The translations under genes and the position numbers were made by a program. The notes under the pieces are model-generated. The model was given only the letters and a program-made list of their open reading frames with translations, ran no database searches and was not told the DNA's origin. 64,000 nucleotides of DNA from an uncultured Verrucomicrobiae bacterium (GTDB taxonomy: Bacteria; Verrucomicrobiota; Verrucomicrobiia; Limisphaerales; Palsa-1400). The stretch's first letter is position 1, and each line of letters starts with the position of its first letter. The DNA lies in the NCBI GenBank assembly GCA_963702845.1, contig OY969763.1:3616001-3680000 (forward strand), written 5' to 3'. Of this stretch, positions 3,904-55,400 are shown one piece after another.

Positions 3904-4404
3904 TCAAATCGTTTTGCGTTCTTTGAGCAATGCTTCGAGATCGAGGGGATGGGTGAACATCTGGAGGTTGCCTTGTGCGTCGCGGGGCCATTCAGCCTGT
4001 GGACGGTCCCAGTAGAGTTCGACGCCGTTGTTGTCGGGGTCGCGGAGATAGAGGGCTTGGCTGACGCCGTGGTCGGAGGCGCCTTGGAGTTGGATTCCGG
4101 CAGCGATGAGCCTGCTCAAGGCGTCGGCGAGTTCGGCGCGCGTCGGATAGAGAATAGCCACATGATAAAGGCCGGTCGTGCCGTCGGCGGGTGGCCGGCC
4201 GTCTTTGCTCTCCCAGGTGTTGAGGCCGATGTGATGATGGTAGCCGCCGGCGGAGAGGAATGCGGCTTGTGTGCCGTAACGTTGGGTGAGTTGGAATCCA
4301 AGGATATCGCGATAGAAAGCGAGGGCGCGATCGAGGTCGGCGACCTTCAAATGAACGTGGCCGATTCGGACGTCGGGATGGATCGTTTTTGCGGTCGTTT
4401 GCAT
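3904..4404 (-). CDS. VOC/glyoxalase family protein (CatE-like)
   Basis: IGHVHLKVADL, GGYHHHIGLNTW, DHGVSQALYLRDPDNNGVELY. Confidence 0.9.
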   Translation of the reverse strand: MQTTAKTIHPDVRIGHVHLKVADLDRALAFYRDILGFQLTQRYGTQAAFLSAGGYHHHIGLNTWESKDGRPPADGTTGLYHVAILYPTRAELADALSRLIAAGIQLQGASDHGVSQALYLRDPDNNGVELYWDRPQAEWPRDAQGNLQMFTHPLDLEALLKERKTI

Positions 4405-46697: not shown

Positions 46698-46756
46698 TAT
46701 TAAACCGCAAAAAACACACAAAACGCAAAGCTATTCCACGTATCCCAAGTCTCCGC

Positions 46757-46803
46757 GTATCGCAGGTTTCCAAACCTGCTGTATCGCCGGTTTCCAAACC
46801 GGC
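46757..46803 (+). repeat. REP doublet upstream of the RAYT
   Basis: GTATC-GCAGGTTTCCAAACCTGC and GTATC-GCCGGTTTCCAAACCGGC. Confidence 0.9.
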
Positions 46804-46910
46804 AGACGTAAGAAATTTCAAAACCATAAAAACTTACCCCAAACCTCCGTCAACAACACACCTCCATCAATCCCTCTCGACAATCATCAACCGAATTTTA
46901 GGATGAAATC

Positions 46911-47150
46911 GTGGAACGCCCCGACGACGACCAAACAAACCGCGGACTCGATCGAGTTCCCCACGAACTTCGTGCCGACGGCATCAAAGCCGATTCCCGC
47001 ACGCCACTTCGCTCAGGCATCCACAGCCGCGGATACTTGCCCCACATCAAACGCGAAGGCGCATCTTACTTTGTTACGTTTCGTCTGGCTGGTGCGTTAC
47101 CAAAAGAAGTTCTACTGAGATTCGAAGCCGAAAAAGCCCCCCGATTACGG
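46911..47150 (+). pseudogene. truncated duplicate of the RAYT 5' end
   Basis: GIHSRGYLPHIKREGASYFVTFRLA, interrupted by a new REP doublet at 47163. Confidence 0.8.
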
Positions 47151-47162
47151 TGTGTCGCAGCC

Positions 47163-47209
47163 GTATCGCCGGTTTCCAAACCTGCCGTATCGCCGGTTTC
47201 CAAACCGGC
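47163..47209 (+). repeat. REP doublet (second copy)
   Basis: same GTATCGC..GGTTTCCAAACC palindromes. Confidence 0.9.
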
Positions 47210-47314
47210 AGACGTAAGAAATTTCAAAACCGTAAAAATTTACCCCAAACCTCCATCAACAACACACCTCCCAATCCCTCTCGACAATCATCAACCGAAT
47301 TTTAGGATGAAATC

Positions 47315-47994
47315 GTGGAACGCCCCGGCGACGACCAAACAAACCGCGGACTCGAGCGAGTTCACCACGAACTTCGCGCCGACGGCATCAAAGCCGATGC
47401 CCGCACGCCACTCCGCTCAGGAATCCACAGCCGCGGTTACCTACCACACGTCAAACGTGAAGGCGCATCTTACTTTGTTACATTTCGCCTGGCTGATGCG
47501 TTACCAAAAGAAGTCCTGCTGAAATTCGAAGCCGAAAAAGCCCAACGACTGCGACGTTTGGACTTAATGATTAAACGCGGCGAAAAGTCGAACGTTACCT
47601 TGATTGCGGGCACGGAGCTTGTCATCTCCGACGCCCCGATATAGCCGAGTTGGTCGCCAATGCCCTGAAGTTTTTCCACAACGAACGTTATTTACTGAAC
47701 GAATGGGTCGTCATGCCCAATCACGTCCACGCGCTGCTTTGGCCAATGCCCAACCATTTGTTGAGCGAGATTCTAAAATCCTGGAAACAGTTCACATCCA
47801 GAAACGCAAAGCCGATTCTGAAACTCGATGGGGAAGATGAGTTCTGGCAACGAGAATTCTACGACCATTGGATACGTAACGACGACGACAACGCGCGCAT
47901 TGCGCGATACATTCGTAACAATCCGGTCACCGCAGGCTTGTGTGCGCGGACGGAAGATTGGCGATGGAGTAGTGCCAATGCTCAGCCGACTTAG
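47315..47994 (+). mobile_element. REP-associated tyrosine transposase (RAYT/TnpA-REP, Y1 HUH family); frameshift or deletion near 47585
   Basis: RGYLPH..YFVTFRLAD, VMPNHVH (HUH), FWQREFYDHWIR, YIRNNPV..WRWSS; flanked by inverted REP doublets. Confidence 0.88.
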
Positions 47995-48018
47995 CAAGTA
48001 ATCGATATCTCGAGGCCT

Positions 48019-48065
48019 GCCGATTTGGAAATCGGCGATACGGCAGGTTTGGAAACCTGCGATAC
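48019..48065 (-). repeat. inverted REP doublet downstream of the RAYT
   Basis: GCCGATTTGGAAATCGGCGATAC and GCAGGTTTGGAAACCTGCGATAC. Confidence 0.9.
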
Positions 48066-48925: not shown

Positions 48926-49216
48926 ATGCGAGCAAAGCTGCAAACGTGCATTTTGGTTTTGGTGCTTGGCGGCCTGTGCCTTGGCATATTCAGTTTCGTT
49001 GGCGATCGTCTGCAGCCTCACTGGGTGCTCCAGCTTGGCGGTGCTGATTATGGGCTGTGGGTTATAAAATCGAACGTATTTTTGCTTTTCCGCAGTGCGC
49101 AGTTCGAGATTTCACGTTTCATAGATACGACAGCTCTTTCCATGCTCGCGCTTGGCTTAATGGTAGGCATGTGGGCTCGGCACAGAGGACGAGGGCGATA
49201 TGGCGCGTCTAACTAA
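48926..49216 (+). CDS. cassette-like ORF 1, small membrane protein
   Basis: hydrophobic 96-aa ORF whose last codons overlap the attC R'' box. Confidence 0.55.
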   Translation: MRAKLQTCILVLVLGGLCLGIFSFVGDRLQPHWVLQLGGADYGLWVIKSNVFLLFRSAQFEISRFIDTTALSMLALGLMVGMWARHRGRGRYGASN

Positions 49217-49330
49217 CCGCTCCAGCCAACACCCGCCGCTCTTGGCATTTCCATTCCGGCGGATATTCTGTTGTCACTGGCTGCGGCCACGTCCCGCTCC
49301 GGCGGCTGCGGCTGAGCTGAAATGTGAGGC
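49207..49330 (+). other. integron attC site 1
   Basis: R'' GTCTAAC, L'' GCTCCAGCC, L' GGCTGAGC, R' GTGAGGC. Confidence 0.75.
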
Positions 49331-49339
49331 ATATACAAC

Positions 49340-49657
49340 ATGAGTGACGTTCGGCCATTAAACCGTGCCGTGTTCGTGCCCGATTGGGTGTTCATCGTGT
49401 TATTTGTGACCACCCTCATTGGTTCTATCGTCACTCAGACCGTTTGGTTCCTTGTTGGCCTTGTCGTTGCAATTCTCGTACAAGGTTTTTACGTTTGTCT
49501 GATTGCCCGTTGTCCCAATTGCGGCGCTCGTGGCTTTTTATTGCGCGGTGGCGAAACAACGGGATACGATCGCCCATATCGCCTGCATTTGGAGTGCCGA
49601 CGTTGTCGCACGCTTTTTGACACAGGCCGGATTCGGAAGAACGAGTACTCTAATTAG
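49340..49657 (+). CDS. cassette ORF 2: two TM helices plus CxxC..CxxC zinc ribbon
   Basis: ATG just after the attC1 R' box; CPNC and CRRC motifs. Confidence 0.6.
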   Translation: MSDVRPLNRAVFVPDWVFIVLFVTTLIGSIVTQTVWFLVGLVVAILVQGFYVCLIARCPNCGARGFLLRGGETTGYDRPYRLHLECRRCRTLFDTGRIRKNEYSN

Positions 49658-49899
49658 CTCATGATGAAATCGGTGCCTAACGATGGCGCTTCAGCGCCTA
49701 TGAGGTTTGTCAATACGTAGTGTGCGTCGATGATAGTTTTTTTGGGGTTGATCGCGCGGAGCGCAGTGGAACGAAGCGCAGTCGCGCGCGGCAGGCGGTT
49801 GGACATTGGTTCGATCCGCACCTGTTGTTCTTCTCGAGTCTCCGCTTATCTGTTCCTCTTCAAAGTTCCTTTCTTATTTCTCTCAAAGCAGGTTGCGTG

Positions 49900-50158
49900 A
49901 AGTTTGCTGCATCGGTGTCGCCGCGTTTTGTGTGTCGGGAGTTTGTCCCGCACCAGCTCCTATCCGGACAGTTGAGATAAGACTCAACGCCCACTGTGTC
50001 TTACTTGCCTGACTGCGGCGACCGGGGAGTCCGCCCCTTCTAACGGACGGATGAACGCAAGGTTCACCAGCTGAAGCTACGGACTGGACTCGCCCGATCG
50101 CAAATTGTTTCACGCTCTTAACTCTGGAGGTTCTACTCACGAAAAAATTAAATGTGGT
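49900..50158 (-). ncRNA. candidate bridge/seekRNA of the IS1111-type element (ends approximate)
   Basis: minus strand contains GCTTCAGC (50077-50070), identical to the target flank, and ATAGGAG (49963-49957), identical to the reconstructed circle junction. Confidence 0.55.
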
Positions 50159-51310
50159 TCACACGCCGACCCAGCCGAGGTCTGCCATGGTGCAACGGCC
50201 GGTTCGCCAGCGCCAGAGGTCCACGGCCAGTTGCCGGGCAAGGGCAATGACAGTTTTCTTCTTCATGGCCGTGCCGGCGGCAAGTTTGGTTTTCATTTTA
50301 AGTGCGGCCTTCCACCCCGGTTGCCACATCAGAAAACGCCAGACCGCTTCCACCAGGATCGCTCTGACTCGTCCGTTGCCCATGCGATCGATGCTGCCGA
50401 CGCGCCGTTTGCCTCCTGAACTGTGTTCGCCCGGGCAACATCCGGTGTAGCTGCCAATCTGTTTGCGATTGTGGAAGCGCTGCCAGTCGCACACTTCGCC
50501 TTCCAGTGTCACAAGAGTGATCTCGCCAAGGCCCTTGGGCCGTGGTTGTTCTTTGACCCGCGCAATCAGTTCCTCTTCCAGTTCCTGCCGTTGTGTCTCC
50601 ATGGCGACGAGGACCTCGCGGAGCTTTTCGAGAACACTGAGCAGCCACGGATCGAGGGTGGAAAGTTTTTTCCAGTTGCGCGCTCCCCACCAGCGATGGG
50701 GCAGTTTGACGTGGCTGTATTCGGCGGCTTGGCCGTGACCGCGATTGGCGAGCATGCGAATGGCTTTGTTGAGGAACTGTCTTCGTCGCGTGCCTTCGCG
50801 CTGGCGCTGCTCTTTGTCCGAAGGAATGCGGATGGGTGCAAGTTCGTTGATGTTGCCATCAACCCAGCGAGAGAGGCGCAGGCAAAGAGCGCGCGCGTCC
50901 AGCTTGTCGGTCTTGCGCTGGCCGTTGAGGGCAATCGGCGTGATCAAAAAACTTTGCGCACCGGCGGCGACCAGTTCGCGATGGAGCACGAAGCCGAACC
51001 CACAGCTTTCCTGCACGCAGAAAACTTGCAGGCCTTCGCTGGTCCACTTCTGAACCTGGGCGATGAGTTGCTCACGGCTGAATTTGCGTGGCGCTTGGGG
51101 TGAAGCGTGATCACGTTGGGCTACCGCCATGATGAACTCCAGATGCACGTCCAGGCCAAGCTTGAGAGCCGGTTTGCCGGCAAGCAGCACAGGACGTGGC
51201 AAAGGCTGGCGCGGCGGCACGTTTGCCAGCTTGCCCGCGGCAGGCACGCTGGTTAGGGTTGGGACTGTCATGTGGGGTTTGAGTAAATATGTTTTCATTT
51301 TCAAAAACAT
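50159..51310 (-). CDS. IS110-family transposase (DEDD recombinase)
   Basis: LGLDVH, QESCGFG, KTDKLDA, GCCPGEHSSGG..G.I..GNGRVRAILVEA. Confidence 0.95.
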   Translation of the reverse strand: MFLKMKTYLLKPHMTVPTLTSVPAAGKLANVPPRQPLPRPVLLAGKPALKLGLDVHLEFIMAVAQRDHASPQAPRKFSREQLIAQVQKWTSEGLQVFCVQESCGFGFVLHRELVAAGAQSFLITPIALNGQRKTDKLDARALCLRLSRWVDGNINELAPIRIPSDKEQRQREGTRRRQFLNKAIRMLANRGHGQAAEYSHVKLPHRWWGARNWKKLSTLDPWLLSVLEKLREVLVAMETQRQELEEELIARVKEQPRPKGLGEITLVTLEGEVCDWQRFHNRKQIGSYTGCCPGEHSSGGKRRVGSIDRMGNGRVRAILVEAVWRFLMWQPGWKAALKMKTKLAAGTAMKKKTVIALARQLAVDLWRWRTGRCTMADLGWVGV

Positions 51311-51849
51311 CGTGACCCCGTGTGGGGCTGCGACTCAACCCTTCATGACATCTGACCGCGGGTTGACGCTGCGTTTACAATCCTTTGGTCAGCGGCCCGG
51401 CGGTCGCTGAGCTGAACGTTAAAGCCCCCTCAACCTCCCCTGAATAATCACGCGCGGCTTCGTTGCGACCAGATACCGCAACGCATTCGCCGTATCGTCT
51501 CCGCCGACCCCATCGTCGTCGGCATCGACCCGTTCGAGAGCGCGCAACGCAGAAAAAGCAACTGACTATTTTACACAAAATGAGCCAAGCCACTACACCG
51601 CAACCTCTTCCTCCAAAAACAAAAAATTTCACTTAGACAGCCTTTGTCCAAGTGACCTTGTTAGACTTCTCTTCGAAAAGTATATGACATGAACATAAAT
51701 ACGAACAACGCCACCGCCGCAAGCGACCTGCCCTCAACCGCGTCTGCCGCCGTGCGTCACCATAGTAACGGCGTCGACCAACCTCAGAACTATCAAATTT
51801 CGAATCTCAAATCGCCGAAAAATCAAACTCCGACACCACAAAAACAACC

Positions 51850-52473: not shown

Positions 52474-55400
52474 ATGTTCGCGTACTTTAAAATGGCCTTC
52501 GTTTTTTCTGCTGCCTTGCTGCTCACGCTCAAGGTTGCGGCAGAACCGCTTCGCTTCAACCACGACATTCGTCCAATCCTGAGCGACAACTGTTTTCGCT
52601 GCCACGGCCCCGATAAAAATCAGCGCAAAAAAGGTATGCGCCTGGATGTCCGCGAAGATGCTCTTCAACATAAAGCCTTTGTTCCTGGCAAGCCCGAGGA
52701 TAGCAAACTCGTCACCCGCATCTTCTCGACTGATCCCGATGAGCTGATGCCTCCACCCAACTCGAATAAGAAACTCACCGACGAACAAAAGAATATCCTC
52801 AAGCGTTGGGTCACTGAAGGCGGACAATACGAACCGCACTGGGCCTATATTAAACCGGTCAAAGCGCCCTTGCCCACGGTCAAAGACAAGCAGTGGGTTA
52901 AAAATCCAATCGACACTTTTGTCCTGCACGAGTTGGAAGTAAAAAAATGGAAGCCGTCTCCTGAAGCAGACAAACGCACGTTGCTCCGTCGGCTCAGCCT
53001 CGATCTGACCGGATTGCCACCAAGCATCGAAGAGGTGAACGCTTTCCTGCACGACAAGAGCGCGAACGCTTACGAAAAACAAGTCGATCGCCTGCTCGCG
53101 TCGCCGCACTTCGGCGAATGCATGGCCGTTCCCTGGCTCGATGCCGCGCGTTTCACCGACACCGTTGGTTATCACGGTGACCAGAATGAACGCATCTTCC
53201 CCTACCGCGATTACGTCATTAATTCGTTCAACAAAAACAAACCGTTCAACCAATTTGCCATCGAACAGCTCGCCGGTGACCTCTTACCGAAACCGACCGA
53301 CGAACAGATGGTTGCCACCGGCTTTAATCGTTTGAACATGATGACGCGCGAAGGCGGCGCACAAGCGAAAGAATATCTCGCGAAATATGGCGCAGACCGC
53401 GTCCGCACTGTGTCCGGCGCGTTCCTCGGTTCAACGATGGCTTGCTGCGAGTGTCACGATCACAAATATGATCCATTCAAGACGCGCGATTTCTATTCGA
53501 TGAAGGCGTTCTTCGCCGACATCAAGCAATGGGGAGTTTATTCGGATTACGGTTACACTCCTAATCCGGAACTAAAAGGTTTCGGCAACGAACATCCGTT
53601 CCCGCCTGAAATCGAAGTCCCCAGCCCATATCTGCAGGCACGCCTGACCAATTTCCAGAATCGCATCGATACAGCCATTACAGCGTCATCGAAGAAGATG
53701 ACAAAAAAACAAAAGCAGGATTTCGACGCCTGGCGTAACTGGTCTCTCACTTTCATCAAGACCGAAACCAACGGTTGGGTTACGCCCAAACCATCGGTGA
53801 AGTACGCAAAGAAAGAAATGAACACCGAGCCGAACACGAACTTTCTAGTTGAAGCGAATGGCAATATCCAATTCCTCGGCAAACCGGGCGAGACGGATGT
53901 TTCCCTTTCCCTCAGCAATACTGTTTGGCTCTCGGCGATCCGCGTCGAGTTGCTCTCGGATAAGAAACTAAGTCCCACTTCGACGAAGCGCCGCGAAAAA
54001 GACGCCAGCATCTCGTTCACCGCCGACCTTGAGCAAAACGGGCAACCGAAAACGATCGGGTTTCACCATGCCGAAGCCGACCACAAACAGGAACGGTTCT
54101 CAAACGGGGCTTCTACAGTCGGTGTCGAAGACATGTGGAAACCAGATCCCGATCGCACCAACGAACTTCAAACCGCCGTCTGGGTGTTGCAGAACCCGAT
54201 GCACGTATCGCAGGTTTCTCCCGATGCAATCGGGACCGTATCGCAGGTTTCCAAACCTGCCGTATCGCAGGCTTCCAAGCCTGCAGGGACAAATAGCGCA
54301 ACCAACTCCAGTCCCACCCTCCACCTCCACTTCAAAGAAAACGGCATCGCTGCCATCCGCATTTCCGTTTCACCCTTCGCTGCCGCTGCTCCGCTTGAAA
54401 GCGGTGCCCCCGCAACTGTCGTCAAAGCGCTCCACGCCCATTTCGGCGCCGACCGCGTGCGATTGCAAACCACTTACTTCCTAAGTACCGCGTGGGACAC
54501 GAACACTTTGGCTGACGTTCGCAAATTGGAACGCGAAGCTCTCGAATGCCGCAACGGACGCGCGTTCACCATGGTGACAAAAGAAATGGAACCAATGGTC
54601 ACACACATTCTGCCTCGCGGTAATTGGCAGGACGACAGCGCTCCGATTGTGCAACCCGCGATCCCCGAGTTTCTGCCGACCATTGCGAATCCAACCAATC
54701 GACGCCTGACACGGCTGGATTTGGCCAAGTGGATTGTGTCCCGTGAAAATCCCCTCACCTCACGCGCGATCGTTAATCGCATGTGGAAACAATTTTTCGG
54801 GACCGGCATTTCCACGACCGTTGAAGATCTTGGCACACAAGGCGACCCACCGAGCCATCCCGAGTTGCTCGATTGGCTTGCAGTGGAATTCCAGGACAGC
54901 CACTGGGACGTGAAACATATGGTCAAACTCTTAGTCATGTCCTCGACCTATCGTCAGGCCTCCAACCTGCGCTCTCCGATGCGGGAGGAAGACCCGAACA
55001 ATCGCCTGATCTCGGCCCAATCTCCGCGCCGTCTCGACGCCGAATTCGTCCGCGACAACGCATCTGACCATTTCCGGCCTGATTAATTTGCAAATCGGCG
55101 GCCCGAGCGCGTTCCCCTATCAACCCGCCGGCTACTACGCCAACATTCAATTTCCTGATCGCGATTACATCGCCGACAAAGACGAACGCCAATATCGCCG
55201 CGGCATTTACGCACACTGGCAACGCACCTTCCTCCAACCAATGCTGGCCAACTTCGATGCGCCCGCGCGCGAAGAATCCGTCTGCACCCGCAACATCTCG
55301 AACTCTCCGCAACAAGCGCTCACATTGTTAAACGATCCAACGTTCGTTGAATCAGCGCGCGTCTTCGCTCAAGACGTCTTAACCCAAAGGAAAAAAAGCG

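Follow-up and report, generated by a model that had tools for sequence, protein, structure and literature searches.

How does an insertion sequence come to lie inside the stem of an attC site, and does an RNA of its own lead it there? The question is raised by a minus-strand element in a stretch of bacterial DNA 64,000 nucleotides long (hereafter, the window), which a reading made from the letters alone, the sequence-only reading, had called IS1111-type, with segments of a non-coding RNA that match both its target and its own joined ends. From comparison with other copies and with relatives, whose named hosts are mostly Verrucomicrobiota, we consider it very probable that the element is an autonomous recombinase of the IS110 family, guided to attC by a bridge RNA, in a lineage associated with Verrucomicrobiota. 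Its parts, in window coordinates, are as follows.

49697..51353, minus strand: complete IS110-family element of 1657 bp; present six times, with shared ends and differing flanks
50159..51310, minus strand: DEDD recombinase, 383 aa; the start may be the ATG at 51298
49917..50103, minus strand: predicted bridge/seek RNA, ~187 nt, a target-binding arm and then a donor-binding multiloop
51336..51353, minus strand: left end, placed by sequence and coordinates; a 7-nt extension and an imperfect subterminal inverted repeat (51346-51336)
51347-51342, minus strand: -10 half of the predicted junction promoter, within the left end; from the -10 tally over 49 left ends
49697..49713, minus strand: right end, with a TTGACA -35 box (49713-49708), the inverted repeat (49709-49700), and a 3-nt extension

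The window's own genome (G000) holds six copies, five of 1657 bp and one of 1654 bp, and the element ends are placed at 51353 and 49697 because all six begin and end at the same bases, just where the sequence-only reading had put them. Three copies are identical, the window copy is one base off those three, and another is three bases off, a near-identity (0, 1, and 3 base differences) that indicates recent movement; the sixth copy (G000:441916-443569, 1654 bp) is 95% identical. The end pattern is that of IS1111, with 7 nt and then the inverted repeat on the left, and the inverted repeat and then 3 nt on the right. TTGACA is found in 38 of the 41 right ends of the element and its relatives, and the inverted repeat of the window element, 10-11 bp long, has one bulge and one mismatch, where most relatives have one bulge; for the IS1111 group, PMC11187229 gives repeats of 11-13 bp that are perfect or almost so. 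Downstream of the transposase gene, 462 bp of non-coding DNA lie within the element. A second conserved hairpin-like block, common to most relatives, sits near the right end in the 49764-49795 region, outside the guide RNA.

Judged by its sequence, the transposase is an IS110-family recombinase with a DEDD RuvC-like domain and a C-terminal Tnp domain that bears an S-G motif. It scores 171.7 bits against NCBIfam NF033542 (cut-off 140) and matches PF02371; PF01548 falls below significance on the window protein (E threshold 0.001) and is recorded for some close relatives. The DEDD residues (D54, E101, D135, and D138) are invariant across 27/27 aligned relatives, and S298, within G-x-x-P-x4-S-G, aligns with the IS621 serine loop. 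A sequence search of solved structures reached IS621 at an E of 0.36 only, the AlphaFold model is weak (pLDDT 63, pTM 0.40), and its top fold matches, IS621 and ISCro4 at a TM of 0.23, add little. The transposase measures 379-383 aa, against the 330-350 aa expected of the IS1111 group. Another IS110-family transposase, 29% identical, is present in G000 in three copies (1599938, 98283, and 2836108).

The site that the element interrupts can be rebuilt from its flanks, and a comparable site next to it is unoccupied.

49675..49696, plus strand: left part of the interrupted attC, with R'' (49675-49681), a spacer, L'' (49688-49695), and one more base
51354..51424, plus strand: right part of the interrupted attC, which contains L' and R' in the rejoined fold
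49340..49657, plus strand: cassette-like gene whose attC is interrupted, 105 aa, no Pfam family
49207..49330, plus strand: neighboring attC-like site of 124 bp, unoccupied, which follows a cassette-like gene of 96 aa (48926-49216)

When 49675-49696 and 51354-51424 are rejoined, they form a 93-bp attC-like hairpin whose bottom strand has a folding energy of -19.5 kcal/mol and in which the cut adjoins a bulged base, in keeping with the earlier statement that excision restores an attC stem. The names R'', L'', L', and R', here and at other targets of the element, presume the general anatomy of attC sites. The attC-like sites have the build expected of them, namely, R''/R' boxes, an L''/L' stem with bulged bases, and a position right after a gene. 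Among the empty sites of the six own copies, three are complete attC-like hairpins (92-93 bp), two are half-sites that have R'' and L'' only, and one is an unrelated sequence; the five attC-type sites carry R''-L'' in one shared register, and in all five the cut falls one base past the L'' box. Five of the six own copies lie in attC and point against the cassette, and the sixth (G000:441916-443569) interrupts a 319-codon open frame at a site outside any attC. On the R'' side, GTT is present in 33 of 39 right flanks, and two soil-type runs from a single sample contain related uninterrupted sites as loose ends. No match to the integron integrase model TIGR02249 over its cut-off was found in G000 (one contig, 89.8% complete), and two of four genomes that hold relatives of the element have such a match.

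Two further observations concern the genomic surroundings. A 110-270 bp repeat, which we take to resemble the 3' end of a phosphoketolase gene, occurs in about 20 or more copies in G000 and clusters with attC-like sites (at 176-183, 1700-1731, 2185-2198, 2836-2851, 4285-4318, and 4833-4836 kb); two element copies occupy half attC sites right beside it. At 46756-48065 and 54237-54346 of the window, 49-nt REP-like inverted repeats lie around a transposase-like gene, presumably that of a REP-associated tyrosine transposase, in a region that includes a 404-base tandem duplication.

On the attC top strand, which is the plus strand of the window, the target reads as seven bases (GCTTCAG), a two-base core (CG) behind which the cut falls, and five bases (GACCG). 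The predicted donor junction is likewise 7 bases (ATGACAT), a 2-base core (CT) followed by the cut, and 5 bases (CCTAT). Along the RNA, the guides run GCTTCAG-CT, a hairpin, CCGTT-AG, AAGACAC, a hairpin, and ATAGG-AG, set in the following elements.

50069..50077, minus strand: first target guide (LTG in IS621 terms), GCTTCAG and core guide CT; reads the attC L'' box
50038..50046, minus strand: second target guide (RTG), CCGTT and core guide AG, with handshake AA; missed by the sequence-only reading
49994..50002, minus strand: first donor guide (LDG), weak, AAGACAC (50002-49996), left end match 5/7; likewise missed
49955..49963, minus strand: second donor guide (RDG), ATAGG and core guide AG (49963-49957), with handshake CT
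50018..50101, minus strand: closing stem of the target arm, in which GCGAGTCC (50093-50086) pairs with GGACTC (50032-50027)
50050..50068, minus strand: hairpin between the two target guides, from the predicted fold and covariation

Among 64 loci other than the own copies, 42 have a readable attC-type RNA and 30 of those have both flanks; the six own copies raise these numbers to 48 and 36, and the loci include near-copies (L002/L007/L009, L031-L033, L039/L040, and L045/L047). Over the 36 loci, the first target guide matches its flank at 7/7 bases in 24, 6/7 in 6, 5/7 in 1, and at most 2/7 in 5, and the second at 5/5 in 15, 4/5 in 15, and 3/5 in 6. Guide-target covariation, which had been proposed as a check, is thus seen across relatives: in L010 and L038 both target guides and both flanks have changed together, and in L019 the second target guide has changed with its flank, while the other flank does not fit. 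More distant relatives (36-39% identity) share the RNA layout and have non-attC targets; their first target guide changes with the flank, and their last donor guide is ATAGC, with a right end that reads CATAGC. In the window element, RDG matches the right end at 5/5 bases plus the core and has an unpaired probability of 0.84-0.90, and one base of LDG follows the left end in L006, L039, and L040, not in L035. When guide types were permuted against site sets, 1 of 200,000 permutations was as good (10 guide types), and 6 of 5,040 were as good within the attC clade (7 types), figures that overstate the case because the register was chosen after seeing the loci and because kin are not independent. 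ISPa21, which played no part in setting the register, shows four guide matches in the same order (6/7, 5/5, 6/7, and 5/5). In L031, L032, and L033, the first target guide ends in CG, the usual target core, not in CT, and the second guide still codes the donor core.

This map departs from the one first proposed, in which GCGAGTCC and GCTTCAGC (50077-50070) served as target guides and ATAGGAG (49963-49957) and a GACAC downstream of it as donor guides. All four motifs are indeed present at those places and in that order, and two of them hold: GCTTCAGC as a target guide, by its covariation with the flank and the 7/7 match in 24/36 loci, and ATAGGAG as a donor guide, being unpaired and tracking the right end in distant relatives. 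Each of these two occurs in about 1 of 100 simulated 442-nt sequences, and both together in 12 of 100,000. GCGAGTCC, however, matches the flank without gaps at only 4/8 positions at the window site and reaches no more than 5/8 identities over the 36 loci; it lies in the stem with GGACTC at a mean unpaired probability of 0.13, and four of its columns show compensatory change with the stem partner in 7, 10, 9, and 14 of 26 sequences, so that it covaries with that partner and not with the flank. The downstream GACAC is also in a stem (unpaired probability 0.13) and is variable among relatives. In the fold check suggested with the first map, ATAGGAG is unpaired, and GCGAGTCC and the downstream GACAC are paired. 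Because two of the four guide calls failed, the earlier guide order is not supported, and the first map as a whole retains next to no credibility. CCGTCCG (50050-50044) was also considered as the second target guide and rejected, as relatives show the CCGTT-AG register three bases further on.

The scaffold that would present these guides is itself conserved, the block 50103-49917 being retained in relatives at 56-85% protein identity. In an alignment of the window with 25 of 40 full-length loci (26 sequences), 97% of the cells in the proposed helices are paired, and 16 of 34 pairs show compensatory change. None of 500 shuffles reaches the observed pairing, and slid controls pair at 54% at most, although these controls lean toward the structure because it was derived from the consensus of the same alignment. 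Taken by itself, the window RNA is no more stable in its folding than shuffled sequences are (z -1.59), and part of both target guides is paired in its lowest-energy fold, as it is in the alignment consensus. A search of Rfam gave no match.

The core is where guide and target part company. The guides code a CT core, as in the donor, and the donor core is kept in 49/49 left ends. The target cores are CG in 26, CC in 7, CT in 2, and TG in 1 of 36 loci, a tally in which some of the ten non-CG loci are out of register. The 41 right junctions read CG in 30, GG in 7, AG in 3, and CA in 1, the target's base being kept. A top-strand cut 3' of the core, as Hiraizumi et al. (2024, PMC11208158) describe for IS621, predicts this pattern of left and right junctions and accounts for the lack of a visible duplication. 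In IS621, the core occupies positions 8-9 and the right half positions 10-14 (parts of PMC11208158 and PMC13626964), and the second core base is an almost invariant T (PMC11208158, in part). Five distant loci with both flanks have a CT core in target and donor alike. The cores of ISPa21 are unequal too (target CA, donor CC), and core tolerance is therefore probably wider than the attC clade. Right junctions are imprecise in L011 and L032 (two extra bases) and in L009 (one base short), and these may be repair scars of the core mismatch.

Next to the core lie the handshake bases. Of 36 loci, 28 show pairing of the two bases after RDG with positions 7 and 6 of the target. For the two bases after RTG, pairing with donor position 7 is seen in 40 of 41 loci and pairing at both positions in 22 of 41. 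These counts are weak because most handshake bases never vary; a stronger sign is that the first pair, C-G here, has become G-C in the distant relatives. Handshake pairing in IS621 favors the reaction after strand exchange, according to sections of PMC13626964 and PMC11208158.

Guide match alone does not account for site choice. In the element-free genome, 114 sites score at least as well by guide match as the weakest occupied site, and the unoccupied neighbor in the window matches at 9/12 positions versus 10/12 for the occupied site. It may be that the guides are right and that site choice also needs attC context, in the form of a folded strand or a contact on the R'' side, a possibility that we take seriously while giving it somewhat less than even weight. 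With an R''-like box 6 nt upstream, 5 of 10 sites are occupied, versus 1 of 104 without the box, and outside long open frames the figures are 4/7 versus 0/6. Nevertheless, 98 of the 104 box-less sites lie in long open frames, where lost gene-disrupting insertions can explain much; two occupied sites have no L'-R' arm and hence no full hairpin now; and the criteria and thresholds were set after the occupied sites had been seen. The site of the sixth copy fits the guide of the other five copies better than its own, which suggests, from sequence, that this copy either moved with another copy's RNA or changed its guide later.

At the predicted circle junction, the two ends would combine into a promoter-like layout of TTGACA, 17 nt, and a TG-extended -10, and a promoter scan of the linear element did not report this junction promoter, as expected. 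The circle joint itself was not found in contigs of four runs (0.20-0.28 word share), which show presence and not absence, nor in viral contigs or in 78 loci. In the window, the last base of the -10 box is A, against CATGAT in 33 of 49 left ends. Such a weakened box, together with an inverted repeat that has one mismatch more than that of relatives, would suit a window copy that has recently died or that moves only when helped by another copy. We regard this as improbable, as the frame is open with all catalytic residues and five copies 0-4 bases apart all have the same ends. From its sequence and from natural variants, the window element is apparently intact and programmable.

The remaining question is whether the element belongs to a known family of attC-targeting elements. 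Works cited for the IS1111-attC group include those of Tetu and Holmes in 2008 and of Post and Hall in 2009. A search of plasmids and phages yielded no close relative of the element, and a literature search yielded no paper on its lineage. Published attC-targeting IS1111 elements with seekRNAs are ISKpn4, ISPst6, ISPa25, and ISPa21, and the RNAs of ISKpn4 and ISPst6 co-purify with their transposases, as given in passages of Siddiquee et al. (2024, PMC11187229). The four share one row in Supplementary Table 1 of Durrant et al. (2024, PMC11208160, seen in part), and the insertion point of ISKpn4 in Table 1 of PMC13604230, a source available in part, equals that of ISPa21. Our ISPa21 was taken from plasmid NZ_CP041734.1 (L082, 105718-106761 plus flanks), whose record says only IS110 family transposase; the locus was identified by the gene order given in part of PMC7232449. 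It has readable donor and target guides in one register, and the available text of the seekRNA paper discusses target matches only (PMC11187229).

The resemblance to the IS1111-attC group is considerable. The element shares with it an attC target, insertion against the direction of the cassette, the lack of a duplication, end extensions of 7 nt and 3 nt, and a non-coding RNA 3' of the transposase, in which a top-strand complement stands 5' of a bottom-strand match, as portions of PMC11187229 describe for IS1111-attC seekRNAs. It shares with ISPa21 the 7+2+5 register, the guide order, and the mismatch between target and donor cores. These likenesses in ends, RNA position, orientation, and guide order would be expected of a plain member of the known group, with one attC-targeting origin shared with ISPa21 and ISKpn4. 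Against such membership, which we consider very improbable, stand the protein and the placement of the cut. The transposase is 25% identical to that of ISPa21 over 240 columns, and a single clade with ISPa21 is rejected (AU p 2.7e-48). The sister lineages (36-39% identity) target non-attC sites. The cut is 8 bases further in relative to L'', so that it falls 15 bases after AAC of R'' here versus 6 in ISPa21, and the guide that reads the L'' box is the other one. The inverted repeat, too, is 10-11 bp and imperfect here, versus 13 bp and perfect in ISPa21.

The transposase tree comprises 23 rows with one long outgroup, and ISPa21 is its sole IS1111-attC member; it leaves out L003, L022, L074, L061, and the genome's other IS110, and the proteins of ISKpn4, ISPst6, ISPa25, IS1111, ISEc11, ISEc21, and IS621 are not in it. 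The attC clade is supported at 100/100 and nested among non-attC relatives at 100/98. Its lineage joins the ISSfr2/ISEc45 group at 95/91, and the IS1111 references ISPa21, IS4321, ISSm1, ISPsy16, and one unnamed element form a separate 100/99 clade. ISSfr2 and ISEc45, the nearest named transposases at 30% and 27% identity, seem by eye also to combine short subterminal repeats with a long non-coding 3' end; unlike the present lineage, which occupies a separate, strongly supported branch, they have flanks that are not attC-like at the two loci seen. The label IS1111-type therefore stands in part: by its sequence, the element fits the IS1111 group in its ends and RNA position and not in its protein, and it works like ISKpn4 and ISPa21 but outside their group.

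The comparison with IS621 is equally instructive. Both have the guide order LTG, RTG, LDG, RDG, 14-base sites in which positions 8-9 of the donor are a CT core, handshake bases that follow RTG and RDG, and junctions that fit a top-strand cut 3' of the core. Unlike in IS621, the RNA is located 3' of the gene and reads the opposite DNA strand, the donor guides are in a multiloop (a feature that Durrant et al., 2024, PMC11208160, note for IS1111 elements), RDG is the strong donor guide where IS621 has LDG, and the second core base in the targets of the attC clade is mostly G (CG in 26/36) where IS621 has T. These comparisons of sequence suggest that IS1111-type elements, with their "reversed" guide order and missing duplication, have the layout of IS621 as it looks from the other strand when the cores are unequal, and ISPa21 also agrees with this reading. 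Such a strand-flipped register was not found stated in the available portions of the literature text; Durrant et al. (Extended Data Fig. 10c) and Siddiquee et al. (Fig. 3) may show it.

A cycle of four steps can be proposed on this basis. Following known relatives, the element would first leave as a circle, whose joined ends would form the promoter that drives the transposase and the 3' RNA. As covariation supports, the target arm would then pair with a 14-base site made up of 7 nt of the L'' box, the 2-nt core, and 5 nt, and the donor arm with the circle junction. From the register and the junctions, we infer an IS621-like reaction in which the attC top strand is cleaved 3' of the core and then exchanged, the handshake bases pairing with the incoming strands and favoring insertion. 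Finally, each core would stay with its own left partner, a junction pattern that is observed and from which the strand chemistry is deduced, and a CG target core could be joined to a CT donor core without duplication. With 1657 bp inserted, the attC is split, and the cassette should stay locked until the element is excised exactly.

How such a cycle came to be aimed at attC can be answered tentatively, with the balance of our judgment somewhat against the proposal: the lineage may have come to target attC on its own, starting as a bridge recombinase with a CT core and growing tolerant at the core base beside the cut. Should the enzyme indeed be free at that base and also respond to attC context, it would be a bridge recombinase to which IS621's strict core rule does not apply, and its insertions would naturally lock the shuffling of cassettes. 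The use of bridge recombinases as tools is known to be limited at the second core base, and tolerance there would ease that limit. For the family, the lineage would add a second, apparently independent route of RNA-guided elements to attC sites, one in which natural reprogramming is visible in all four guides.
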